The notes beneath the pieces are model-generated. The model did not search any database. It was given only the letters and a program-made list of their open reading frames with translations, and was not told the origin of the DNA. The position numbers were made by a program, and so were the translations under genes. Below, in pieces: positions 9,232 to 59,415 of a stretch of DNA of 64,000 nucleotides (positions within the stretch are counted from its first letter, which is position 1; each line of letters opens with the position of its first letter). Where the stretch lies: the sequence record ON286975. The stretch is one strand, 5' to 3'. The stretch is from Escherichia phage I29.

Positions 9232-9489
9232 ATGGCAACAGAAGTAGTAATCAAATCTGAACGCCCAGTTAAAAAAGCTATCAACACGTTCCCTGTGGGA
9301 ACCATTGTGAGCATGATCACAGAGTCAGGCCGTGTATCTACGCTGCTGATTGTGAAATCTGCATGTTCTTCTTGTGTGTGGGCTTACGATCTGGACGAGA
9401 AAGAACTAAAAGATTTTGTTGGGGAGCTGAAAGCAACCGAGCTCGATGCTCGTATCGAAGTATTTGGTGAAACTATGGAGGAAGAGTAA
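9232..9489 (+). CDS. hypothetical protein, 85 aa
   Basis: ORF in plus-strand small-gene array. Confidence 0.5.
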   Translation: MATEVVIKSERPVKKAINTFPVGTIVSMITESGRVSTLLIVKSACSSCVWAYDLDEKELKDFVGELKATELDARIEVFGETMEEE

Positions 9490-12245: not shown

Positions 12246-12370
12246 GATATGACTTAAAACGCAACGAGCCCCTGCAGCGCACTTAACTCACCGCAGGTAT
12301 AAGATTGCATTGCTAGGTAGTTTTGTGCGTCATTTTTAGTTACATAGCTTTCTAGACAGAGACTGATTAA

Positions 12371-12778: not shown

Positions 12779-12876
12779 GTGCCTTCATAAATTGCCCTAC
12801 CTTATGTGATTACCCTCCTGAACAAAATACCTCCCCAAAATCGTTTAAAATTAAGCTTGACCCCAACATCAGATCT

Positions 12877-13323
12877 ATGTATGATTATCTCACCAACCAA
12901 ACAGGGGAGATCGTCATGGATAATCTTGCAAATGTGAACGTCGAAATTGTTAAACTAAAGTTTTTGGGATTTCGAGACCCTAATTCTTTAACAGCTATAC
13001 TAATGGATACCCACTTCACGCCAGGGAAAGAGTACACCGCCTTCCGTTATATTTGTGGAGATCACGAATCAGCTTATAGTGTGAATACAAACCTCGGCGA
13101 GGGATATTTCATCAGAGATATCACAGATCACTTATGGGGAATGTGGGAGTTGGTGGAAGAAGAGAATAAATCCCTTCCTAAAGAGATTTGGGTGCACACC
13201 TTCCACACAGGTAAGTTTGGAGGTACGGAACATAAGTCTATCCACTATGATGAAGAAAGTGCCATCAAACAACAAGCTGTGCTTGGTGGATCTGTAGAAA
13301 AATTTGTTAAATGCGAGGACTGA
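12877..13323 (+). CDS. hypothetical protein, 148 aa
   Basis: ORF in plus-strand array. Confidence 0.5.
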   Translation: MYDYLTNQTGEIVMDNLANVNVEIVKLKFLGFRDPNSLTAILMDTHFTPGKEYTAFRYICGDHESAYSVNTNLGEGYFIRDITDHLWGMWELVEEENKSLPKEIWVHTFHTGKFGGTEHKSIHYDEESAIKQQAVLGGSVEKFVKCED

Positions 13324-13326
13324 TAA

Positions 13327-13527
13327 ATGGCTGATTTTTGTAAAGATTGCTCTGAAGAGTTGTTTGGCTTTGACTGCAAAGATTTGGAAGGTCTGATCAC
13401 TGAGGATCAGTGGAAGGAAGGCTATGCAGCACCTGTTATTTGTGAAGGTTGTGGCTATACCTATGTTGACCATAAAGGTAAGCGCGTCAAGCCGTCTGAA
13501 GATGGGGCATGTTGGGAGTATTACTAA
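13327..13527 (+). CDS. small zinc-ribbon-like protein, 66 aa
   Basis: Two Cys pairs (CKDC ... CEGC) in a 66-aa ORF. Confidence 0.45.
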   Translation: MADFCKDCSEELFGFDCKDLEGLITEDQWKEGYAAPVICEGCGYTYVDHKGKRVKPSEDGACWEYY

Positions 13528-13540
13528 CTATAAAAAGAAA

Positions 13541-13565
13541 GGGGCCAAACGGCCCCTTTTTTATT
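13541..13565. terminator. bidirectional intrinsic terminator
   Basis: GGGGCC-AAAC-GGCCCC hairpin flanked by A-run upstream and T-run downstream, between convergent gene ends 13527 (+) and 13576 (-). Confidence 0.7.
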
Positions 13566-13575
13566 TACCCCCTTG

Positions 13576-16500
13576 TTAACGAGAAAAGGTTGCGTAGGCT
13601 TCTAGACGATACTGCTGGTCACCAGGGAACATAACACCTATAGAGGCTGTCCCTAGAATCCTGCCTTCCTTTCCAGACTCCATTCTGAACCCTACCCATC
13701 CTGAACTCCTTGCAGCCTCGATGTTGTCGCTATACCCGAAAGTGGCAAGATCGTCAACACCAGCCCCAAACAGCAACTGAAGCTGACTTCTAGGAAGCCC
13801 TATAATTTCAGGAATATACGCACCAAAGTACACCATCTGCCCTACCTTAGGACCGCTGCCGTACTCCATCGGTTTGCTTGTAGAGAAAGTCTTCATACCA
13901 GAAGTACCTGCCGGATTAGGGTATGCCCCGTTTGTTGCTGTACCTATCCACATTCTCCACTGTGGTGCCATCTGTTTGACAGTAAAAGATGTTGAAGACG
14001 TTTTGCGCCCTGCATCATCAGTAACTACAAACTTTATGGTGACATTCCCAGTAGCTTTAAATGTTACCAGCCCTGTGGCAGCATCCACTGTTGCAATGTT
14101 GGTATTACTACTTTCCCAAGTCTTTCTAATACCGGATACGTTGGAAGGGGTAATAGAAGGTTCCTGCATCTGCAGTTTACCACCCACAATCCCTATGCCG
14201 TTACCTGGATTATACAGCACACCAACCTCGTCTACAATGTTCCCTGCTTTGAGACTATACTTCCTTGAGAAGTTGTAGGTTCCGTTATAAGTGTGTGTCC
14301 CTGAGAAGGTGACATCTGCCTTCCCGTAAGAGATGCAAACCAAAGCATACTTCCTGTCAGGCAACGTTTCTCCAGTCTCTGGGTGAGTTTTACCCACCTG
14401 GAACACGCTCGGGTCAGTAGAGTCGTGACTATCGCTAATGGAGCTTGGACCGCCCATCAACTGTGACAAACAATTCCTTACCCATGTCCAGTTATTATCA
14501 CTGGAGAAGTCCACAGTCAAATCAAACACAACCCACTCATTCGGCTTCCACACAGGTGTTGCAATGGACTTGCCTGCACCGCCTCCTTGGAGTGTTGCCG
14601 ACTGTTCGGTGATCAGGGCCGCATAGGCCAGAGTCCCTAAACTCAGAGTCTGGCTTGCTGTCCTTACTACCTTAGAATCAGCATCTGTGAAGTTGTTGAT
14701 GATTTGGAATGTGCCATAAGTGTTTTTACAGGTAATTCTGGCGTTCAGTGTGTCAATCTTCCTCACATCTGCCATAGCAGTGTTAGACACAGAGAAGTCA
14801 GAAGCTTTAGCTGAGTTTGCCGCAACAGCAGGATCAACGTTAAGAGTTGCGTTGAACTGACAGGCAGGGGTAACCAGCAGCTTGTTATCACCTATTTGCT
14901 TCCATGAAACACTTTGAACAGGGAGATTCCATTTAATACCTGAGAAAACCTTAGCAACCCTTGGCCCCAAAGCTCCAGTCCTGTTGTCTTTACAGCACAT
15001 AGACATGGTGATCGTTGACGGAGTGGCCTGACCAAATAATTGCTGTGCTTTTGCAGAGGACATGGTGTAGAAATTGTCCTTAACAAACTCATCAGCGGCT
15101 AAAGATCCATCAGCCCTCCACCACTGGACCTGATACCCTGTTTTATCCCAGCCTCCAACCTGCTTCAAGTCCTCCCAAGAGATTTCCAGATCCCCCGTGG
15201 TAGGGTTGATTGCAGCAGTTCCTGGTGTACCGGATGACCACAATGGGATATCAAACCACGCAGGTTTAACAGATTGCACTGCATTAGGACCTATTGCAGC
15301 AGCAAGTTGTTGACCCATCAGCACGCGAGCATCTTTCACCAGGCCCCATTCTATCATAGACCCAGAGTAACCTTCTTTCTTGTAGGCAGAGGATCCGTTC
15401 AAATGGATGAGCCTGCTGCAGTCGAAGCCATACGCTCCACCACCGTTAGGATCTGCAAAGTTGGTTATGATTCTATCCCTAATATTTTTCCATGCCCTAC
15501 CTCCAATCTCGTAGTCATGGTCATAACATCTTTGCAACGTTGTCCAGCAAATGATTGCCATTCTTCTGCCGCCTGTGAACCCGAAAGCGCCGTCATTCAG
15601 CTCTTTCCACAGGTAACAGTTGGTTGTCCACATAGCCCTGTGGATATTGAACCAGTTTATAGATTTGGCTGAGTTGTTCCACTGAGTCCCAGGTAATTCA
15701 GGCCACACTGCATTGACTAGCATGTCCTCTGTACCGGCATCCATTAAGAAGCCTCTTACCTTCTTGCCCATACCTACCCTGTCTTTAGCAATCCAATTGC
15801 CAAACAGTCTCAGTTTTGGACCATAAACAACATCCTCTGGGTGCTCAAAAGAGACATACTTTAAGTAGATTGTTGGGTCACCGTAGGTGCCATCACAAAC
15901 ACTTTTGTGCATGTTTTCGCCAAGGTCTAGACGAAGCCCCGTCACTACTTTAGACGTGTCGGTGAATTTGTCTGTTAAGTCAAATTCATACCACCACCAC
16001 CCACCACCTAGCATAAATTTCTTGCATCGCACAGCGTCTGTGTCAGATATTCTCTTATCCCCTGCAAAAGGTGAATCAGCAAACTGATAGTGCAGAGCAG
16101 TCTCAAATAGGTGGGTGGAAGTTCCGTTCTCTGCAAGAACTTGCTTACCTATCAGATCGCACTTAATGATCATCACAACACGCTTGTATCCGTTTGTTAC
16201 CGGAACTTGCATAGATATGGATGTTCCATCCATGTTCGATCTTAGATCACTCATGATGATATAGGGGTCGACAGCGTTGCCTAAAGTTTCAGGCCCTGGA
16301 ATTATCTTGTATTTCTTGACCTGGCCCATAAATCTGTCACTGGCGTAAGTTGCAGCCTCAAAACAAGAGCCACCACCAGGTAATTCTCCAGGTCCCCAGA
16401 AAAATGCCCCATAGCAGTTATAGAACCACTTATTAGGGTCGTATTTGTTCTTGAAGGTCTGGACCTCGTTGGCCTGTTTTGTCAAGAAAACCTGCGTATC

Positions 16501-27176: not shown

Positions 27177-27554
27177 TTAAATAGTTTGTTGGAAAGTTAT
27201 ATTACTTTCGTCGAGGTCAAACACCTCGGTCATGTTCGCAACAATATCGTTTGTAGTGTAAGCTTCATCAGAAGCTCCTACGGATTTAACTTGAATTACC
27301 AGTCTATTAAATCTGCCTATTGACACAGCAGCAGATGCAGCACCTACCAATTGGATATTATACAACGTATCTGCAACATCCAGTCCGTTAACAACCTGCA
27401 AAAGAGCCTCTATAATGGCATCTTTTTCGGTTGTTAACGGACTGGATGTTGCAGATACGTTGTATAATATCCAATTGGTAGGTGTTTGCCTTGGAGTAAT
27501 AAATTCTTTCAGTTTGACCGTCAGATGTAGTGACATCGTAGAAAATATTACCAT
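27177..27554 (-). CDS. ORF fragment, possibly C-terminal part of the split baseplate-J-like gene
   Basis: +1 frame relative to the upstream ORF, overlapping it by 167 nt; reads in frame through both arms of the 56-bp inverted repeat. Confidence 0.35.
   Translation of the reverse strand: MVIFSTMSLHLTVKLKEFITPRQTPTNWILYNVSATSSPLTTEKDAIIEALLQVVNGLDVADTLYNIQLVGAASAAVSIGRFNRLVIQVKSVGASDEAYTTNDIVANMTEVFDLDESNITFQQTI
27341..27484. repeat. perfect 56-bp inverted repeat with 32-bp spacer
   Basis: 27341-27396 is the exact reverse complement of 27429-27484; flanking bases 27340/27485 and 27397/27428 do not pair. Confidence 0.9.
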
Positions 27555-28668
27555 AAGTCCTGTTCGTACAGGCTATAGTTTGGTAAAGTGCTTGGCAAAT
27601 GTCTTCCGTTGCACCACCAAACACAACCACTTGGAACTTGTAAGGAGGTATACCTTTAGCATCAGTTTTATCGGTGTTGTTGGAGAACACTCTCACTTTC
27701 TCAACACCTTTCACCTCGCTTACAGCGCTAAGGATTGCAGGACGGGTAGCCTTAGATGTTAACTGTTTTGTGCTGGAAGCTCTTAAGCGATACTCTGAGT
27801 CTTTCTCAACATCCCTGCCCTCATTGAATCTTTCTCGGTTGGTAAGCTTGATAAATCCACTAGGAGTAGGTGACATTGTTGTCACGGTTTCTGCTTCTCT
27901 TGACAGCTCACCAGCCTCGTTAGCGATAACATCCAGTGTGATAGTTCTTTCCCCTACAATCGGGGATACTCTGAAATCTACCCTGCTGTTAAGCCCAACT
28001 TGATCAAGATTCGAATTGTACCCTATCCACAACGTTCCTGTCAACATATCGATCTGAATCAAATCGTCGTTCAACAGGGTTGTATTATCGACAATGAATT
28101 GCTTAATCTCTCCGTAAAAGCTTGGCAAATCAGAAGAGTCCAGAGACTTATCTGTTAAAACCAGGCTTTTTGTTTTGATACTTCCATCTGTCTGGTTGGT
28201 AATTTGGAAGTTGTATTTCCCAATCCTTAGGTCTGGAGCATTTATTCTGTGAGCAATAAGATTCCCTGCTACTTGCACATCGTTGCTAAGAACAAAGTTG
28301 CCACTGTCCAGCGTATAAGTTTTGGAATCATAAATCATATTGTACGGCACAGTTGTGTTGATTGTCAACTGGCAGGTACCTGATGATTTAGAACGGCCTC
28401 TTCGGTAAATACCCTGTCTTCCAAGAAGCTCATCTAGGTAAATACCTTCTGCCCCATACAGCGTCTGTGATGCGTATACAGATGCTGCCATAAGAATAAG
28501 TTGATACTCTCGCTCGTTGAAGATAGTGGTCAGCTTATCTGCAACGGAGTTACTCTGTACGTTGAAGTTTTCGCCAAAAGCACGGATCAGGCTTTGCTTA
28601 GTTTCAACGATTAGGTCATTTAGGGTTGGTATAACGAAACCAGCCTCTGTCAATCCATACTTAGCCAC
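27388..28668 (-). CDS. baseplate J-like protein (apparently truncated at the inverted repeat)
   Basis: N-terminus MAKYGLTEAGFVIPTLNDL... follows the pattern of baseplate J (gp47/gpJ)-family proteins; stop codon lies 6 nt into the second repeat arm. Confidence 0.55.
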   Translation of the reverse strand: MAKYGLTEAGFVIPTLNDLIVETKQSLIRAFGENFNVQSNSVADKLTTIFNEREYQLILMAASVYASQTLYGAEGIYLDELLGRQGIYRRGRSKSSGTCQLTINTTVPYNMIYDSKTYTLDSGNFVLSNDVQVAGNLIAHRINAPDLRIGKYNFQITNQTDGSIKTKSLVLTDKSLDSSDLPSFYGEIKQFIVDNTTLLNDDLIQIDMLTGTLWIGYNSNLDQVGLNSRVDFRVSPIVGERTITLDVIANEAGELSREAETVTTMSPTPSGFIKLTNRERFNEGRDVEKDSEYRLRASSTKQLTSKATRPAILSAVSEVKGVEKVRVFSNNTDKTDAKGIPPYKFQVVVFGGATEDICQALYQTIACTNRTYGNIFYDVTTSDGQTERIYYSKANTYQLDIIQRICNIQSVNNRKRCHYRGSFAGC

Positions 28669-28773: not shown

Positions 28774-31700
28774 TTAGTCGTGAGACTCGTTCCAAGGTCC
28801 CTGGAAGCTTGAGTTAGAACGACTAACGATCACAGTGGGACAGGAGATTGTGACACCTGTCACGCTCGACGTTGACCACGGTGTGTAAATCTCGATAACA
28901 ATGTCTATAGTTTGTTCACCCAGACCTGTTATCCCTACCGCACACATGCCGTTGTTGTCGTTAAAATACTTCTTGCCAGCAAGGATCTGATGACCAGCTA
29001 TCCATGCATTCAGTTGGGAGCCGGCAAGAGTACCGTTCAGTTTAAAGAAGAATGTTACGTTCTTACCCTGACCTGAAACGTTATCTACGTATCTCCACCT
29101 CCAACGGCAAACCCTTTGCTGGGAGTTATATACTGGAGCACAATCTCCGTAAGTCCTGTGTGCAACAATCGCACCTTCGAACTGGTTAGCACGGATAACA
29201 GAAGCTTCTACACGACCACGGAAGGTACCTCCGGTTGCATCTATGGTGCCTCTAAAGCTACCATTATTGGCATAAACATCACCACGGAAGGTACCACTGG
29301 TGGCGTTAACTGCCCCTGTGAAGTTACCAGAACTGGCGTTGATGTTACCTTTCACCCACACATCCATAAATTGGGCGTGCCCGTTCTTGTTAATATACCA
29401 ACCGTAGTTATGGTACCCGTTGCTATCGTAGTTGTTTGACGAAATTTCTTGTGCGATCTTGGCAGAGGAGATCGTGCCATTCTCTATAAAAGCGTCTTTC
29501 AAGAACGCTTGGTTATTCTTGATTGCGAAAGCAAGGGTTGCTGTGCCGTTACCAGGGTTGTACACCGCAAAGTTGTTTGCACTAACCATAAAGTATGATT
29601 GAACTTGTCCTCCAGACCCCTCCATGCCCAGCTGGATACCTGCCACATATTTATTACCATGGCTGTCAACCTGAATCTTAGCCCCCCACTGAGCATCTAT
29701 TTTACCCTCAAGTGTTGTTACAGCTTTAGAGGTATTAGATACTGTAGCCCTAAGCTCATCAATATTACCCATTTCGTCAACAATTTCTTGTTTTGCAGAG
29801 GTAAGTTCTTGACGGATCGCTGTGGCTGTATTATTAACAAGATCAACTGTTGTACTATTAGTTTCTTGAATAGATGCTTGCAGATTGGCAACCTCTTTCT
29901 GCACATCATCTTCCAGCTTGGTGATCTTCCCTGTAGCTGCCACCAGATCCTGCTTAATAGCTTCCGTTGTCTTATTTAGCAGGTCGGTTGTTGCCTTGTT
30001 GGTTTCTTGAATAGAGGAGTTAAGTTTGCTCTCAGTGTTCTTCAACTCTTCCCGCAGAGTACCTTGAGTTGCAGTTATTTGCTCACTCAATGCTTGAGTT
30101 TTACGATTAACAAGATCAACGGTTGATCTATTTGTTGTCTCGATTAGTGACCCAAGCCTACCAGACTCTGCTGCAAGTTTATCGTCAAAGGATTGCTGAG
30201 CTGCTACCAGCTTACTGTTAAGGGCAGAAATTTCTCCATTAACCCCTGTAAATTTTTCTGTCGTCTCTCTGACAACACCCTCTATTGTATCTCCAAGCTC
30301 TTCAAAAATGCTAGTAACACGGTCATTGACTGCACCAACATTTTTATCCATTTCCTTGACTGCATTATCGAGATTGGCGGTAAGCTCTTTATAAGTCTCT
30401 GTCTTTTTGAACTCAGCATCAATCTGCGGCATAAGATCTTCTATGGATGTGTAACAGTGGGCTGCACACTCCACAAAAGCAGATGAACCAAAAGCATTTG
30501 TTGTCCTGATATACCAATAATAAATCTTATCGTTCTGCAGACCTTCAGATGTCCAAGTTGAACCAACACCCATACGAGTGGCTTTTGAAGTAACGGTTGC
30601 ATCACTGGTATCTGGCAATCTTGTCATCCCAGATGTCCAAAAGTCATATTGGGTGCTTACACTGGCCAAGGCTCTGCTATGCGGGATCAGGGTAATAGCA
30701 AAGTATCCCTGTTTAACTTCTACAGAAACCGGAGCCTCAGGTGCCTGAATGTTAAACTCACAGTATGCTTCTGGAGATACACCACCTTTATAAGATGTTG
30801 CAACAACAGTGGCTGTGTAGGAACCTTTAGTCAGACCTTCAACACGGACAAACTGCTCAACTGTCTGCGCTGTCCAGACAATCTCTCCGTTTTTCCTGAC
30901 CTGCACAATGTTTTGAGCATAAGTCCCAACGTTGTCCCAAGCCAAAACACCGTGAGTTACTTCTCCAGCTTGGAGAACGGAATATCTGAAGTTTTGCGGT
31001 TGAGCTACACCAGATGGAGATATCGGAATATCTACATCGCCAGAATCCGGAAGTTGCCCTGTGGCATCATTCCACTCTTTAGCATCTTGACGAAGTTTTA
31101 CCTTGACACCACCCTTTTTGGTAAACTCCCATTCAAGAACTCTCATTTCTTGGCCTACTATACCAATACTTGGGAGGTCCATTGTAACGTAACGACCAGG
31201 TTTAAATTTGAAACCTCGCATATTGCAGGTGACTTCAATAATCCTGCCAGCTCTGGCACGTCTTAGGAAGATTGCAGAAACACGTTGAGCTTGATAAGGA
31301 CTGGTAACAAAGCGATAGTCTATATCGATTATCTTTCTTTCTCCATCCTTCCCTATCCACTCTGGGACAAACACTGATGGAAAATCTGTTTCAGAATACC
31401 CTTTGGTCGGACTAGTGAATCTGCCAGTTATTGTGTTGGATCTTTTGTCAAATGAGGCTTCCGGATAGATCTTGACCTCACCACAGACACAATCCTCACT
31501 CAGCGTCATTGTTGCCGGGCCATAGTATGCACCAACCAGCAAACCATACTTACCAGCTACATAGCTGAGATCTGCGCCACAAGCTTTCAGCATCTCTGCC
31601 ATAATGCTTGCCGGAGCCTCGTCCATGTCAAACTCGCCATTAATGGTGTATCGGCGCTCACTGGTTCCGTCTGCGTTTTTTACCGCCTCGTCGCATATGT

Positions 31701-34040: not shown

Positions 34041-37000
34041 TTACTTCAGTTTCTCTTGCAACCCAGTAACAACCTCTGTCAATTTTTTAACCTGCTCCTC
34101 AAGGGCGGTTATTTTATCGTCCTGTTCCCTGCAAACCTGGACAAGCAAGCCTGTTACAGCTGCATAGTCAACGTTATAGAATCTTTCCTCAGTCATCAGA
34201 GGGGTGCCGTCTTGAGTAGGCCCTGGAACCTCTTTCCTTTGCACGAAAGACCCAACCGCTTCTGGTAATGCTTCCATAACTTCTTGAGCAATTACCCCTG
34301 CGTAAGGCATACCATTCTCTTTTAAAGTATAGGTATAGCCTTTCATCTTCCGGATAGCTTCTACAGCGTTAGGTATGACCTCGATATTATCCTTCAGGTC
34401 ACGGTCAGAACTTTGACTAACAGTGGTGCATTCTACTGCACCATTGACAGCAAAATATCTTGATTTGGCCTCATCTGTCTTGGCCCCGCAATGGAATACC
34501 CAGTTGGAGAGTGTTGAGTTATCACTTATCTGGAACTCAAGCACATTCTTCCGGTCTGCACCATTGCCCCAATAATATAACCTACCTGTATTAGCAGGTA
34601 TGTTGGAACTGTTGCCAACAGTAGCTCCGCCGCCAGTGTGGATTATAAACTCTGGGTCAAGATTCGAACCTTGAGTTTTCAAAGTGATCCCTTTGCCACC
34701 AAGCTGCTGCCAAGGTCCCCATGTGAAAACACTACCTATTGTTGTTCCATAACGCAGGAATTTTTCCCCAAGATATGATACATATTCCTGCACACAGCTC
34801 TCAGGCACGTTGGCGTAATTCCTGTACACAATAAGTGTACCTGCCTGAGCACAAGGGTAGTTTCTCTCCGGAGTGGCCTGAGCATTGGCCTCTTGGTGAT
34901 AAAAACCCTCTCTATCCCCTTTGTAGTCGTTAAGGTCATTAGTTCCCAACCCTTGACCACGGTGCTGAATAACTTTGTTCCACGCTCTGTGGTTTCCCTG
35001 CTCTATGGAACGAGTGTACAGCTGGTCTAAACGACCTGCCATCTGGAAAGCGTAGTTTCCAGAAAAACCAACCGACAACCCTGCTACAACCATGGAACCT
35101 TCAGGTCCGTTGACGTTACCAGCCATTATTTTAGAAGGGTTGTTATTTCCGAACTGGTTGTTCCAGTCTGCACCTGTGTGGCATACAAAACCACCAGGAG
35201 CTGAGAAAGTGCCATCTTTGTTGAAGTTGTAGAATTTGTGAGCAGAACCTACAACATCACGAACAATAACTTGACCAGCCTCTGGAGTAGATCTGAACTC
35301 TGCCTGTCCTTTGAGACCAGCACCATTACCGCATTTAGAGGTAAACGTACCGTTAGTCAGATCCTCTGTCCCATCTGATGCACACTGGAAGCCTGCATTA
35401 GAGAATAACGCCTTTCTAGGACTGCCGTAGCACAAATAGTTAAGACCGTCTGCCCATAGCTCGACTTTTGGCATATTCATTTTGCTCATCACAGCATAGC
35501 GTTCAGCAGTGCCTATATAGTGCCACTGTGTGCCGCCACCAGTGTAGAACCCTGAAGTCCCTTTGAAGTCAACAATAGGTCTGGTGTTGGTATTATTATC
35601 TCCAAGAACAGCAAGATTCAAATCTGCTGACTGGAGAGGTGCAACGAACTTAACACCGTCCTGATTGTCTGTTACAGAGCCAACCTGGTAATCTTGCTCC
35701 CTGGTAAACACCTCGACAACATTTCTACTTGCGTATATGCTGACAGGGAAAGCACGCGCCTCTGCATAGAAAGCAACATATTCTTGTTTACCCCTTGTTG
35801 GAGCAACCATCCCAAGAAGTGCTTTTTCATTCTGGTAGAAATTTACTACCCCGTAGAAAGAGTCTCCTCTGTCTGTCCAACCACCAGTTCTATAGTGACA
35901 CTGTAAGGTCGCACAGTTCATAGGGTCATTTCCAGATGAAGACCTGGTGACTATAGTAATATCTGTACCTGTCGAAGGGGCGTAATACGGATCTGTTCTA
36001 ACGATGATTGGGTAGTATTTCCCATCTTCCATCCCTGCGGTTCTTGGCAGTGTTAAGAAGTCTTTTACACCTGCTGCTATAGGAACTTTGAACAGATTCT
36101 GAGCATCTGCTAAAGTTGTAGCCCCAGTGCCACCTGCGGCTTGAGGTAGAGGTTCCCACTTGGCCTTCCGGTTGTTATAAACACCCCATTCAAGCGTTCC
36201 TTCACCTTGCTCGTCCATACCGCCATCCCAGACAACCATCTTGGCGGCTTTCTTGGACCCCCAGAAGCCTCTTTCTGCCCCTGAACTACGGATCCACTCT
36301 CCAAGTCCCCAGTTTGCCAGCTGACCGTTCAGATCACCAACCTGCATATATTTAGGACAATCTAAGACCCCATCCTCACGGAAGCCTAAATAGCTATGAG
36401 TTTCAGATCCTTTTGCGCCTTTGTGCAGGTGGATTGTCAACCAAGCCTTATTGTCGTTTCTTACCTCAGAGTAGATCCTATACCCATGCTCAAGGACACC
36501 GTCAGCGCCGTATTTATCCCCATGGAGAATACCTGATGGAGACTTAACCTCAGAAGTGCTTTGAGATAGGTAAAGGTGCCCGAAGGTAGGGGTATTTCTA
36601 GACCCGAGACCGATGTGCGATCTAAAGGTATCATCGTTACGAGGTCTGACCATCGGCTGCCATGCAGTCCACTGATTTGTGTTGGCCTGATAGGTTCTCA
36701 AATACCAAACATCTACGTTAGAGAATGGATAGTATTCCTGACGACAACCTGTACCGCCGTTAGCATTGTTCTGCCAGACAATCAAGTGACCAGCACCAGA
36801 ACCTGCAGGGTAACCATTTGCCTCAGTTGCATAAGCAGTCATCGGCTGGTAGTATACACCATCCTGATTACCAGTCAAGTTATTGATATTGAAATTTGGC
36901 TCAAGGGCTGCACGTTGCTTATAGAAAGCACCGATATTGATACGGACTCCAGCGGCATCTCTAGCCCCTGTGCCGCCTTGCTCTATAGCAAGAGGTTGCC

Positions 37001-41154: not shown

Positions 41155-41871
41155 TTAGTTAACATCAATAGCACGACCAGACTGGTTGGCAATAGCCTCA
41201 TCATTGGAGGTAGCAATAACACCAGAGTATTCGCGCTCATCTGGAGCAAGAGTCCAGGTATTGCGGTTAATGGTTTGTTCTGCCTCGGTCATCAGCAGAT
41301 CTTTATCCTGAGTCAACAGAGAGCCTACAGGGATAGGGTTTTCCATCTCAGGACCAGCATACTGGTTCCACCATGTGGCATCTCCGGTTCTAGGCAATCT
41401 GAAGTTGATCAGGTAGTACAGTTTATTGGCCCACTTAATCCAACCTTCATCATCACAGAGAGAGGTTGTCCCAGAATCAGGCTGTGGGTAGGTAAACTGA
41501 TCAAGACCTACGAAAGCCAGCCTTACAATCTCGTTCTCTTTGGTAACAACCTCAAAGAACGCTTGGTATGTTCTCGATCTTCGATCCATGGTAGACTGGA
41601 AGTTTACGATGTTTAGCACATCCGGCTCTTGTCTTGCCACTTCCATAATCTTGTTATCAAGAACAGTCTTCATGACCTTCTTACTGAGAAAGTCCATATA
41701 AGGGAAGCCAAACAACTCGTCAAAGTACCAGCTCCCCTTCCACGTATTAAACCTCATCCACAAGCGCTGGCGCAGACTTACCTGGTTTGAATCTATCAAC
41801 TCAAGACCTTTGTCTATCGCCAAATCGCCTGTCTGTGGGTCCATCAATATATCACTATAAAGCGTAGCCAT
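41155..41871 (-). CDS. baseplate-associated hypothetical protein, 238 aa
   Basis: Located between spike-like gene and fibre genes. Confidence 0.4.
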   Translation of the reverse strand: MATLYSDILMDPQTGDLAIDKGLELIDSNQVSLRQRLWMRFNTWKGSWYFDELFGFPYMDFLSKKVMKTVLDNKIMEVARQEPDVLNIVNFQSTMDRRSRTYQAFFEVVTKENEIVRLAFVGLDQFTYPQPDSGTTSLCDDEGWIKWANKLYYLINFRLPRTGDATWWNQYAGPEMENPIPVGSLLTQDKDLLMTEAEQTINRNTWTLAPDEREYSGVIATSNDEAIANQSGRAIDVN

Positions 41872-51159: not shown

Positions 51160-51630
51160 TTACTGTCCGATTTTAAAGGTTGCAGATTCAAGCAGCACAT
51201 CGTAATGCCGCATAGCCTCGTTGAAGCCTTTCTCTTGTGCCCACTGCTCGCTAACAGTAGGATTACTAAACTGCCCAGCCTCAATAACAAACTGGATAGC
51301 TTTGGCCCCTGTGTCCCCCATCTGCTTAAGAATAGCCTCTGCACTTGATCCTCTAGCCATAGCTCTCAACAATTTTTCTGTCAAGGTCTGTAGTTGAGTG
51401 CTGTGAAATGCAAAGGCTGTCTCCATGAAATTGCGAACAGGCAGCCCGTTCCAACCGAAGTTGTGAATGGCTGCCAATGTTGCCATATTTAAGCCTGACG
51501 GGTGAGGTTCATCATAAAAGCCGTAGGTTATTGTTTTACTTTCAAGTCTCACAAGTTCTTTGTAGAAGCTATCTAAACGCTTTAGGTTGAACCTTGTTTG
51601 ACATTTAACCTTTAGCATTATATCCCTCAC
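51160..51630 (-). CDS. head-tail connector-type protein, 156 aa
   Basis: Neck region ORF. Confidence 0.4.
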   Translation of the reverse strand: MRDIMLKVKCQTRFNLKRLDSFYKELVRLESKTITYGFYDEPHPSGLNMATLAAIHNFGWNGLPVRNFMETAFAFHSTQLQTLTEKLLRAMARGSSAEAILKQMGDTGAKAIQFVIEAGQFSNPTVSEQWAQEKGFNEAMRHYDVLLESATFKIGQ

Positions 51631-53277: not shown

Positions 53278-54288
53278 TTAGCCACCGTTTTTCAGAGTTA
53301 CTTTAACAACCAGCTCTGGGCGGGTGTTAACTGCCAGCATAGAAGTTTCAGATTCAATCTTCTCTTCACGCAGGTATGCAGAGTGTTTATACCACATATA
53401 CAGTTCCTGTGCTGGGGTATTTGCTTCGTTAACATCGTCTGCCGGAGCAAAGTGCAGCTGGAACATCTGATCAATACCCATCGGCAGAATGCGAGCTTCT
53501 TTCTTAGGAATATTGCCAGAGATATCTTCGATAAAGGTGATACCTTTATGCTCAAACACACGGTATACGCTGTCTTGACCGCCAGCACCCAGACGGCGAC
53601 GCAGAGGTTCCTGAGCAGAGCCGTAATAGGTGTATGCCAGTTCTACCAGCGGGTGATGGGTAATAGCACTGAAGAACTCTGGTGAGCACAGGGCTACAAT
53701 ACGATAGCCAGCTGCATTATCACCAGCTTGCAGTGCGATGTGCAGACGAGCTTCTTCCAGAACCTCCATAGGATCCTGATCTGCTTTTGCAGGGTCAATT
53801 TCAACAGATTTCTGAGACACACCCCACAGAGTGTAGTAATCATACTGACAGGTGGTGTCACCAGGTGCATAGGATTTACCCAGAATAGCCTGGAACAGCG
53901 CTTTCTCACGCAGTGCTTCATGAGAAACACGGATACGGCGAACAACGCGGGTTACTACGTCCTGAACAGTTTTCGGAGCATCAGGAGTGAAGTAACGACG
54001 GAAGTTCTGAACATCTGCGGCAGTGATGCCTTTGTCCAGAGGGAAGAACGGGATGTTCAGGTTTTTAACCTGAGCACGTTCACTACCAACGTAGTTACGC
54101 TCACCACCACGACGGCGTGCCGGAATGTCGGTTACAACTTCATCAACACGTTCGATCTGAGCAATTGTTGAGGTGCCGAGACGAGTTTCGAACAGATCCA
54201 TACCAGTAATCAGGCGGAATTGACGCGGAACAAGGTCCAGAGTAGCACCTAAATCAACAATGCCAAATTCATCTTTACGAGTAATCAT
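53278..54288 (-). CDS. major capsid protein
   Basis: 336-aa ORF downstream of scaffold and small head protein, followed by strong terminator; assignment by position and size. Confidence 0.55.
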   Translation of the reverse strand: MITRKDEFGIVDLGATLDLVPRQFRLITGMDLFETRLGTSTIAQIERVDEVVTDIPARRRGGERNYVGSERAQVKNLNIPFFPLDKGITAADVQNFRRYFTPDAPKTVQDVVTRVVRRIRVSHEALREKALFQAILGKSYAPGDTTCQYDYYTLWGVSQKSVEIDPAKADQDPMEVLEEARLHIALQAGDNAAGYRIVALCSPEFFSAITHHPLVELAYTYYGSAQEPLRRRLGAGGQDSVYRVFEHKGITFIEDISGNIPKKEARILPMGIDQMFQLHFAPADDVNEANTPAQELYMWYKHSAYLREEKIESETSMLAVNTRPELVVKVTLKNGG

Positions 54289-54336
54289 TTATTTCTCCAA
54301 AATAAAACTTAAATATTTTCCCGAACAATTTAGGGC

Positions 54337-54726
54337 TTACTCTTCACCAAGAGTCTGGACCTGAACCTTGTTGCCCAGAGCCTCAAGCTTGTCTAACACA
54401 GCCTGTTCTGCTTTAGCGCCACCAGTTGCCAGCAATTTATCCTTGGCAAAAGTAACACCACGCACAGCAACAACCAGTTTATATTTCTTTGTGCCAAGAG
54501 GTTCAGCGATATGTACTTTACCAGCAGAGTCTGGAATTAAAGCACGATCCACCAGAACGCCGTAGGCGTCTGAACCGTCCTGATTAGCAATGCTGCCATC
54601 TTTGGTCACAACCGTGCCAGCATGATGGTGCTCTGTCAGTGTAATTTCCATCTCTTTAAAATTGTAGCCAGCATCGCTAGAATCAACTTTGCCGAGCACG
54701 ATATCAGAATATTGAGCGGTAATCAT
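54337..54726 (-). CDS. small head protein (decoration-type), 129 aa
   Basis: Between scaffold and capsid genes. Confidence 0.35.
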   Translation of the reverse strand: MITAQYSDIVLGKVDSSDAGYNFKEMEITLTEHHHAGTVVTKDGSIANQDGSDAYGVLVDRALIPDSAGKVHIAEPLGTKKYKLVVAVRGVTFAKDKLLATGGAKAEQAVLDKLEALGNKVQVQTLGEE

Positions 54727-57867: not shown

Positions 57868-59415
57868 TTAGATAAAACGCTTGAACATAGAAGGTGATGA
57901 GATTGATGGAATCACACAAGGAAGTGCTACCTCCTCTTTCTCTAGGAAATTAATCGCAGAAGCTACACAGTCGGCCCAGTCGTCTTTTCTGTTAAATGTT
58001 GATCTTTCCCCGTTGAATTTTTCAAGTTCAGTCAGAAATGCTTCCAGAGTATCAGGATGGAAACTGGATTTTACAATCCTCACCATTCCTTGTTGGGCAA
58101 GATTGGCAAAAGGTGAGAACCTTGTCAGTTTAGACTTGTTGGAAGGCATTGGGTCTTCTTCAACCCTGAACCCTTCGGCAAGCAAGGATCTGGAGGAGGT
58201 TAAGAACTCACTCTTACCTGCCTGCCCTGGGTCCACAGAGAAGACGATTATGCAATCATCACCATCGAACTGCGCCTGTTTCCTGATGATCACATCTCGT
58301 TCACCAGCCTTTTTACAGAACTTGCCTTCCAGACCTGTGGAATACCTCCCGTCATCCACGTTCTCAGGACAATAATCACCGGACAGGTAATAAAAGCCGT
58401 CGCTATCTTTACTTACCTTAATACTGGCAGTAAAGTCAGGAAATTTATTACCGGAAGTTCTCTCGGTTCCTGCCTTATCCCATGCCCTGCAAGATACTGA
58501 CCCAAGAGGTACTCTATCGGCATCACGAAGGAAAGATCTTTGAAAATAGTTTGCACCCTCAGGCTTTGCAAACCAGTTACCATGGAGAAGCTGAGCTTTT
58601 TCCAGCTCTGGTAGACCTTCGAGGAAAGCAAGGTATTCTGGGTTGTCTCTCAAACAGACAGGATTATCGAATATTGTTGCGCCTATGAACGAGAATGACA
58701 ACGGTCTTGGCTTGATCTCTACGCCAAGTCCGTTAACCGTGGTGTATTTCTCTATCAACTCTTCTTTAGAGTCTCCCCAGATAAATTCACCGTCGCGTCG
58801 GATAAAATATCTTTTCTTACCGCATTTCTCCGGATCTGGATACCCTTCATCGTCCAACCACCATCTAACCAGTTTGGCAAGCATGTGTTCTGAATCGGGG
58901 TTACAGCTGATAACCATTCTTGATGGATACTTTGACTGAGATCGCAGACGAGACATCAGATAGTCTATCTGCTCCCATTCGAACTGCGTGCCCTCATCGA
59001 AGCAAACCATGGTGTACTCAAGCCCCTGATGGTTAAGCTTATCTTGTACATACTCCATATGGCAGTATTTTACAACAGCTCCCTTTTTGCTTCTATCCCA
59101 CTTACCAGTGTTCGGATCAAACCGTGGAAAAATGAACTTATGATCCTTCTCTCTGAACTTTGGCTTAATGTTTTCAGGCAGATCACTGTAAATAGCTACT
59201 GCTTTAGGCCATAGTCCACCCTCACCTTCCAACTGTGGGGTTGTTCTTCGGAACATAACCACAGAGCTGTGGGGGTCATCAATAATTTTAAGTGGCATCA
59301 ACTGCAAGAGGAACGACTTGCCAGACCCTGCGGCACCGCCGATTACCAAAATATCTGCATCGTTTTCTAGGATCATCTTCTGCTTTTCAGAACACGGTCC
59401 GTAAATCTTAGACAT
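57868..59415 (-). CDS. terminase large subunit
   Basis: Walker A ILVIGGAAGSGKS near N-terminus; 515 aa; upstream of portal. Confidence 0.8.
   Translation of the reverse strand: MSKIYGPCSEKQKMILENDADILVIGGAAGSGKSFLLQLMPLKIIDDPHSSVVMFRRTTPQLEGEGGLWPKAVAIYSDLPENIKPKFREKDHKFIFPRFDPNTGKWDRSKKGAVVKYCHMEYVQDKLNHQGLEYTMVCFDEGTQFEWEQIDYLMSRLRSQSKYPSRMVISCNPDSEHMLAKLVRWWLDDEGYPDPEKCGKKRYFIRRDGEFIWGDSKEELIEKYTTVNGLGVEIKPRPLSFSFIGATIFDNPVCLRDNPEYLAFLEGLPELEKAQLLHGNWFAKPEGANYFQRSFLRDADRVPLGSVSCRAWDKAGTERTSGNKFPDFTASIKVSKDSDGFYYLSGDYCPENVDDGRYSTGLEGKFCKKAGERDVIIRKQAQFDGDDCIIVFSVDPGQAGKSEFLTSSRSLLAEGFRVEEDPMPSNKSKLTRFSPFANLAQQGMVRIVKSSFHPDTLEAFLTELEKFNGERSTFNRKDDWADCVASAINFLEKEEVALPCVIPSISSPSMFKRFI

Follow-up and report, generated by a model that had tools for sequence, protein, structure and literature searches.

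A perfect inverted repeat that splits a Vequintavirus baseplate wedge gene is the probable scar of a polymerase template switch

The window, i.e. the entire 64,000-nt stretch of DNA analysed here, encodes a baseplate wedge gene that is broken by a perfect 56-bp inverted repeat. The geometry of the repeat is very probably that of a single two-hop polymerase template switch, in which the interior of one arm was copied from the other. We hold with moderate confidence that the switch was a spontaneous error of phage replication, which is the most likely origin. The allele is an instance of a long-known class of mutation, or an in vitro mimic of one, and represents no new element, regulation or protein.

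The phage of the window is a Vequintavirus, an rV5-like E. coli myophage. A search with 2.4 kb of surrounding sequence gave 117 matching phage records at 90-99% identity, the best of which was DrSchubert (99.0%). Where the window spans 1492 nt on the minus strand (27177-28668), the relatives have a single 1491-nt CDS of 496 amino acids. In DrSchubert, Murica and rV5_ev146 this one annotated CDS covers both ORFs into which the window gene is divided, and it is flanked by a tail-fibre gene and a second baseplate gene. The intact homologue and the larger window ORF (ORF1) both match the Pfam family Baseplate_J (36.5 bits, gathering cutoff 21.1). The wedge protein aligns end to end (residues 3-495, E 2e-158) with Wedge 2 of phage phiTE (PDB 9CUY, 9cuy_T) and also aligns with gp145 of phi92. 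A Foldseek search with the AlphaFold (AF2) model of the intact protein (pLDDT 85) recovered wedge proteins of phiTE, Bas63, Mu, P1 and T4 (9cuy_S, E 4e-63; T4 5iv5_B, E 7e-11). An earlier note on this DNA had taken the two ORFs for halves of one baseplate-J-like gene, and the single CDS of the relatives, the Pfam match and the alignment with 9CUY bear this out.

In phiTE, one wedge 1 and two wedge 2 proteins make up each wedge. They form a trifurcation unit and a helical bundle, by which the baseplate ring is held together (PMC11972413). In its undamaged form the gene is a typical representative of this Baseplate_J wedge family (phiTE Wedge 2, phi92 gp145, T4 gp6, Mu gp47, P2 J), located in the module of baseplate and tail-fibre genes. 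The window copy belongs to the family but is damaged. It is frameshifted at codon 398, has no contiguous C-terminal module and, instead of an intact single polypeptide of ~495 amino acids, encodes ORFs of 426 and 125 amino acids. The neighbouring tail-fibre gene (1199 aa) carries in its C-terminal part two adjacent 62-nt direct repeat copies (29210-29337; 71% identical, 66-nt period), which are likely a repeated structural motif.

The two arms of the inverted repeat, 27341-27396 (downstream in gene sense) and 27429-27484 (upstream), are 56 nt each, complementary at all 56 positions (100%) and 32 nt apart, exactly as the earlier note had described them. Such a repeat cannot have arisen by chance (4^-56 per placement). 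A search of the whole 64-kb window for inverted repeats (20 nt or longer, arms at most 400 nt apart) yielded this one alone. The note had also proposed that the mRNA would form a perfect 56-bp stem, and the predicted RNA fold of the 186-nt region does contain the full stem (-117.8 kcal/mol, compared with -52.6 for the ancestral sequence).

Alignment with the relatives reveals that most of the repeat is old. The downstream arm is wholly ancestral, and the spacer (27397-27428), which has a small internal stem of its own, has the same sequence and orientation as in the relatives. Both ends of the upstream arm, together 14 nt, are ancestral as well. Only the interior of the upstream arm has changed: 42 nt at 27435-27476 replace 41 unrelated nt found in all relatives (in gene sense GCCTGGATATGAGAATTACCTACTCCGGTGCTGCGCTTTCT, coding RLDMRITYSGAALS). 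These 42 nt are the exact reverse complement, with 0 mismatches, of 27349-27390, a donor tract within the downstream arm that is conserved in the relatives and encodes part of VVNGLDVADTLYNIQLVG. In gene sense, the two novel junctions are GGCAAACACCTACC joined to AATTGGATAT (AATTGG... directly after the junction) and CCGTTA joined to ACAACCGAAAAAG.

The net change in length against all relatives is +1 nt. The ancestral arms measure 55 and 56 nt and share 36 identical columns in a 58-column gapped alignment, and making them identical accounts for the gained nucleotide. As judged from this alignment, the ancestor was a weak quasi-palindrome that in the window has been made perfect and 1 nt longer, through a replacement rather than an 88-nt insertion. 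The earlier note had read the site as a foldback insertion or inverted duplication of 88 nt, since removing one arm plus the spacer fuses the two ORFs. That arithmetic is right (29 x 3 + 1) and is what a foldback insertion or a small palindromic mobile element has in its favour. It does not describe the origin of the allele: the orthologous gene of the relatives is one intact 1491-nt CDS with the ancestral tract, shorter by just 1 nt and not by 88, and the sequence that predates the change comprises the spacer, one arm in full and 14 nt of the second. Neither a target-site duplication nor other copies of the repeat were found in the window or the relatives. We regard the probability of such an element or insertion as practically negligible.

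Other kinds of rearrangement fare no better. We rejected recombination with a divergent allele (mosaicism) on the grounds that the tract exactly matches the reverse complement of its neighbour. An invertible segment or phase switch was likewise rejected, since the spacer points the same way in every relative and the upstream arm no longer has its ancestral sequence. A promoter and terminator scan returned a single site within the repeat region, a sigma-70-like plus-strand match at 27388-27416. It lies in ancestral sequence common to all relatives and is therefore unrelated to the lesion.

The borders of the changed tract coincide with short complementary words. The tract begins directly after GGTTGT (27429-27434), which pairs with ACAACC at 27391-27396, and ends directly before GGTAGGTG (27477-27484), the complement of CACCTACC at 27341-27348. 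Both the inner (6 nt) and the outer (8 nt) pair of words were present beforehand in the relatives, in register; in the closest lineage a third word, TGGATAT (7 nt), matches as well. In the predicted ancestral fold these words are paired. Complementarity of the arms ends exactly at the outer microhomology (27484/27341). The pre-existing imperfect repeat, the exact templating by the other arm and the bounding microhomologies are the features of a Ripley-type switch. Among the candidate explanations of the earlier note, a recent template-switch mutation is the one best supported by the exact templating, the microhomologies and the +1 nt.

In the simplest version of this mechanism, the nascent strand (the plus strand of the window) would have been extended through the downstream arm, the spacer and GGTTGT before folding back, so that GGTTGT paired with ACAACC atop the small spacer hairpin. 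Synthesis would have proceeded for 42 nt along the nascent downstream arm (27390 to 27349) and on into CACCTACC, and the new 3' end, GGTAGGTG, would have re-annealed to the original template in register. Under this order GGTTGT would be the first switch point and GGTAGGTG the point of return. An alternative cross-fork (intermolecular) route would start at CACCTACC and return at ACAACC, exchanging these roles and giving the same product. The non-inverted spacer is compatible with either path.

Folding of the ancestral sequence favours such a course of events. The folding energy predicted for ancestral 27392-27434 with DNA parameters is -8.6 to -10.2 kcal/mol, compared with -2.2 +/- 1.4 for shuffles, and in this fold the 3' GGTTGT pairs with ACAACC above the small spacer hairpin. 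According to this prediction the ancestral hairpin stood ready to prime fold-back synthesis. Although the site permits such a switch, it does not stand out statistically as a hotspot: only three loci of the ancestral-like window combine complementary words of 6 nt (inner) and 8 nt (outer), and shuffled sequences have a similar number. The other two (41404-41503 and 54232-54361) are potential sites for similar template switches, and neither shows a switch here.

Switches of this type are well described. At a short complementary word the polymerase departs from its template, and it returns after copying the opposite arm of a quasi-palindrome (Ripley 1982 per PMC7202029; PMC8604942), which perfects the repeat and often shifts the reading frame (PMC7202029, PMC8604942). 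Classical cases include T4 rIIB, yeast CYC1, the E. coli thyA hotspot and the lacZ QP reporters (PMC7202029). The window allele resembles these systems in the passage from an imperfect to a perfect repeat, in bases templated by the other arm, in two switches at short words and in a one-step complex multi-base change that includes a frameshift. A phage gene also provided the first described case of the class. It is larger than the classical events, with 42 nt copied and a 56-bp arm compared with the 18-bp lacZ quasi-palindrome; in natural yeast coding events the arms are 7-16 bp (PMC8604942). It also differs in that the ancestral arms are only weakly similar and that its in vivo origin is a presumed one.

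Template switches identified by comparative genomics (Loytynoja; PMC9435742, PMC7954356, PMC8794818) provide a second comparison. They too combine substitutions with an indel on a terminal branch and consist of a reverse-complement copy of adjacent sequence that makes a perfect hairpin. Human genomes carry 192 such events of at least 25 bp, which reach up to 90 bp in complex sequence (PMC9435742), and the 42 nt copied here lie within the reported size range. Those events are overwhelmingly non-coding, eukaryotic and validated by segregation or reads, whereas the window event affects an essential phage structural gene and comes from a single assembly.

The shortness of the shared words also bears on assembly. 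A pure graph artefact, in which k-mers were mis-joined at the repeat and no read contains the sequence, could be suspected because three public contigs stop in or near the arm, suggesting that the region can trouble assemblers. These metagenomic contigs (ENA ERZ14213585 NODE_319, Logan SRR9161515_357 and Logan SRR18825470_1450) match the window at 100% identity and end at 27359, 27343 and 27269, inside the downstream arm or close to it. None of them reaches across the lesion, and the intact haplotype matches them just as perfectly. Their ends do not fit the k-mer geometry of a 56-nt perfect repeat, and the breaks could come from strain SNPs at 27342 and 27345 or from a local problem of assembly or coverage. 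We therefore did not take them as read-level support for a hairpin. The longest exact word common to the two ancestral arms is 8 nt, below any assembler k; both novel junctions must therefore occur in reads or molecules. A graph artefact is thus exceedingly unlikely, and of the assembly artefact raised in the earlier note only a form at the level of molecules, made in vitro, is still to be weighed below.

The replacement has clear consequences for the reading frame. The gained nucleotide shifts the frame, so that residues 412-496 are severed from the rest of the protein. ORF1 (27388-28668, minus strand; 426 aa) encodes native residues 1-397 followed by 29 aberrant residues (QLDIIQRICNIQSVNNRKRCHYRGSFAGC). 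The downstream arm contributes the last 6 nt of its sense codons and then its stop codon (27390-27388). ORF2 (27177-27554, minus strand; 125 aa) starts at an out-of-frame ATG that is present in the relatives too, and encodes 40 out-of-frame residues before native residues 412-496. It overlaps ORF1 by 167 nt and contains the mirrored peptides PTNWILYNVSATSSPLTT and VVNGLDVADTLYNIQLVG. The end of ORF1, the overlap and the mirrored peptides had all been noticed before and are confirmed here. Fourteen codons (residues 398-411) are missing from both frames.

In the structural model of the intact protein, a beta-strand at residues 395-407 is followed by helices at 412-427 and 437-446 and strands at 453-462 and 481-495. 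The break is thus predicted to interrupt the folded C-terminal module rather than a linker. In 108 protein clusters that extend down to 29% identity, the wedge protein is 494-500 amino acids long in all but five (253, 274, 396, 486 and 521 aa), which include fragments from short contigs, and no member of these clusters is split at this position. We infer that the window carries a loss-of-function allele, encoding a truncated wedge protein and a detached C-terminal piece rather than a functional element, and that it is probably lethal or strongly deleterious. In addition, a 56-bp RNA duplex would be expected to impede translation of the operon and attract RNase III.

Two observations could be read in favour of an allele that is real and tolerated or even exploited, whether because the two fragments assemble, because ribosomes shift frame at the hairpin or because the hairpin regulates downstream tail genes. 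The ATG of ORF2 is preceded by AGGA, and if the source was plaque-purified, an allele at consensus level implies viability. We consider a tolerated split very unlikely. It is conserved in none of the relatives, it cuts a beta-strand of a confidently modelled domain and removes fourteen residues from both frames in a family that is never split, and the RNA duplex would act as an RNase III substrate and translation block. The earlier note had listed a recoding or regulatory hairpin among its candidates. We rejected programmed recoding and a regulatory RNA hairpin, as the hairpin is absent from all relatives and matches no curated RNA family: an Rfam search of both strands yielded just generic long-hairpin miRNA-precursor matches far below threshold.

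The lesion is recent and, so far as the public records examined extend, unique. One intact 1491-nt wedge gene of 496 amino acids occurs in all relatives examined (116 GenBank records and ~29 other public contigs). The ancestral tract is present in 19/19 full-length comparators, and ten further assemblies have the 496-aa gene. The best match of the mutant arm in the 116 phage records is no higher than 84.6%. The nearest intact haplotypes are public contigs from three different sequencing runs (L006, L012 and L019). Outside the tract they differ from the window by 2 SNPs (29022 and 29120) over 6-10.6 kb, both with alleles that also occur in other strains, and inside it by 22 aligned differences. 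The changes are therefore clustered on a terminal branch between unchanged flanks, in a singleton among more than 140 relatives, as expected of a single recent event. This agrees with the reading of the earlier note that the lesion is recent.

Wider collections returned no further copy. In an index of 153 billion gene positions, exact look-up of the ORF1 and ORF2 products and of the 1199-aa product of the upstream gene found no record, which indicates that the source assembly is absent from that collection. A scan of IMG/VR gave 0 matches for the mutant junction and likewise 0 for the ancestral junction, so this collection lacks the phage group. A scan of JGI metagenomes for the mutant junction, run without a positive control, also gave 0 matches.

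The singleton status and the predicted lethality are difficulties for an origin in phage replication. Only one assembly carries the allele, a polymerase in vitro could make the same geometry, and the consensus status of a probably lethal allele is hard to explain without complementation or bottlenecking. The same two-hop switch may instead have happened in vitro, during whole-genome amplification (e.g. phi29 MDA of a low-input or single-particle sample) or during library PCR, while the gene of the phage itself is intact. Its product would then have come to dominate locally and entered the assembly. This would account for a probably lethal allele in the consensus. The allele occurs in none of the other relatives, and three other runs contain an essentially identical haplotype with an intact gene. 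The fold-back-priming hairpin, moreover, forms in single-stranded DNA in any setting. Typical amplification chimeras have one inverted junction and no in-register return after 42 nt, and the in-register double switch seen here would be unusual for them. Elsewhere, the 64 kb contain neither a second chimeric or inverted junction nor an excess of indels, and consensus status would need an early jackpot event. We regard an in vitro origin as possible but doubtful, and favour a spontaneous error of phage replication.

Comparison with the relatives produced several observations apart from the wedge gene. There are no further indels against DrSchubert across 13957-34380. A single-base insertion at 51162, 9 nt before the stop codon of a bas50_0012 homologue, would change the last few residues and could be natural variation or an error. 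Four segments (9243-9476, 12246-12346, 12851-13956 and 34467-35040, the last in a large tail-fibre gene) have no megablast counterpart in DrSchubert and are flanked by sequence of 92-99% identity; they look like mosaic replacements. The large terminase gene (57868-59415) is an uninterrupted 515-aa ORF in the window, with the corresponding junction near 58989-58991. In DrSchubert the terminase CDS is annotated in two pieces around ~884 nt with a putative homing endonuclease (record 1108-1991), so the window carries the allele free of the intron and homing endonuclease gene. Lastly, 17 unannotated 'Campylobacter phage' records (MG065635, MG065644, MG065653, MG065690 and others) are ~98% identical to E. 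coli Vequintavirus genomes around the wedge gene. The stated host of 15 of the 17 is Campylobacter jejuni, and the records are probably mislabelled or contaminant assemblies.

The assembly carries a broken essential gene, and 27177-28668 is best annotated as one disrupted wedge gene and not as two genes. If the allele is real in vivo, it is a natural phage example of quasi-palindrome correction that is unusually large and clean. Since a near-identical haplotype preserves the exact ancestral allele, it can serve as a teaching case and as a defined substrate for measuring template-switch rates in Vequintavirus replication. A viable clonal phage with the allele, which we deem highly improbable, would have to build its baseplate with a two-fragment wedge protein or recover the frame ribosomally at the hairpin. 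Its existence would imply that a virus can survive the splitting of an essential structural gene by one template switch.
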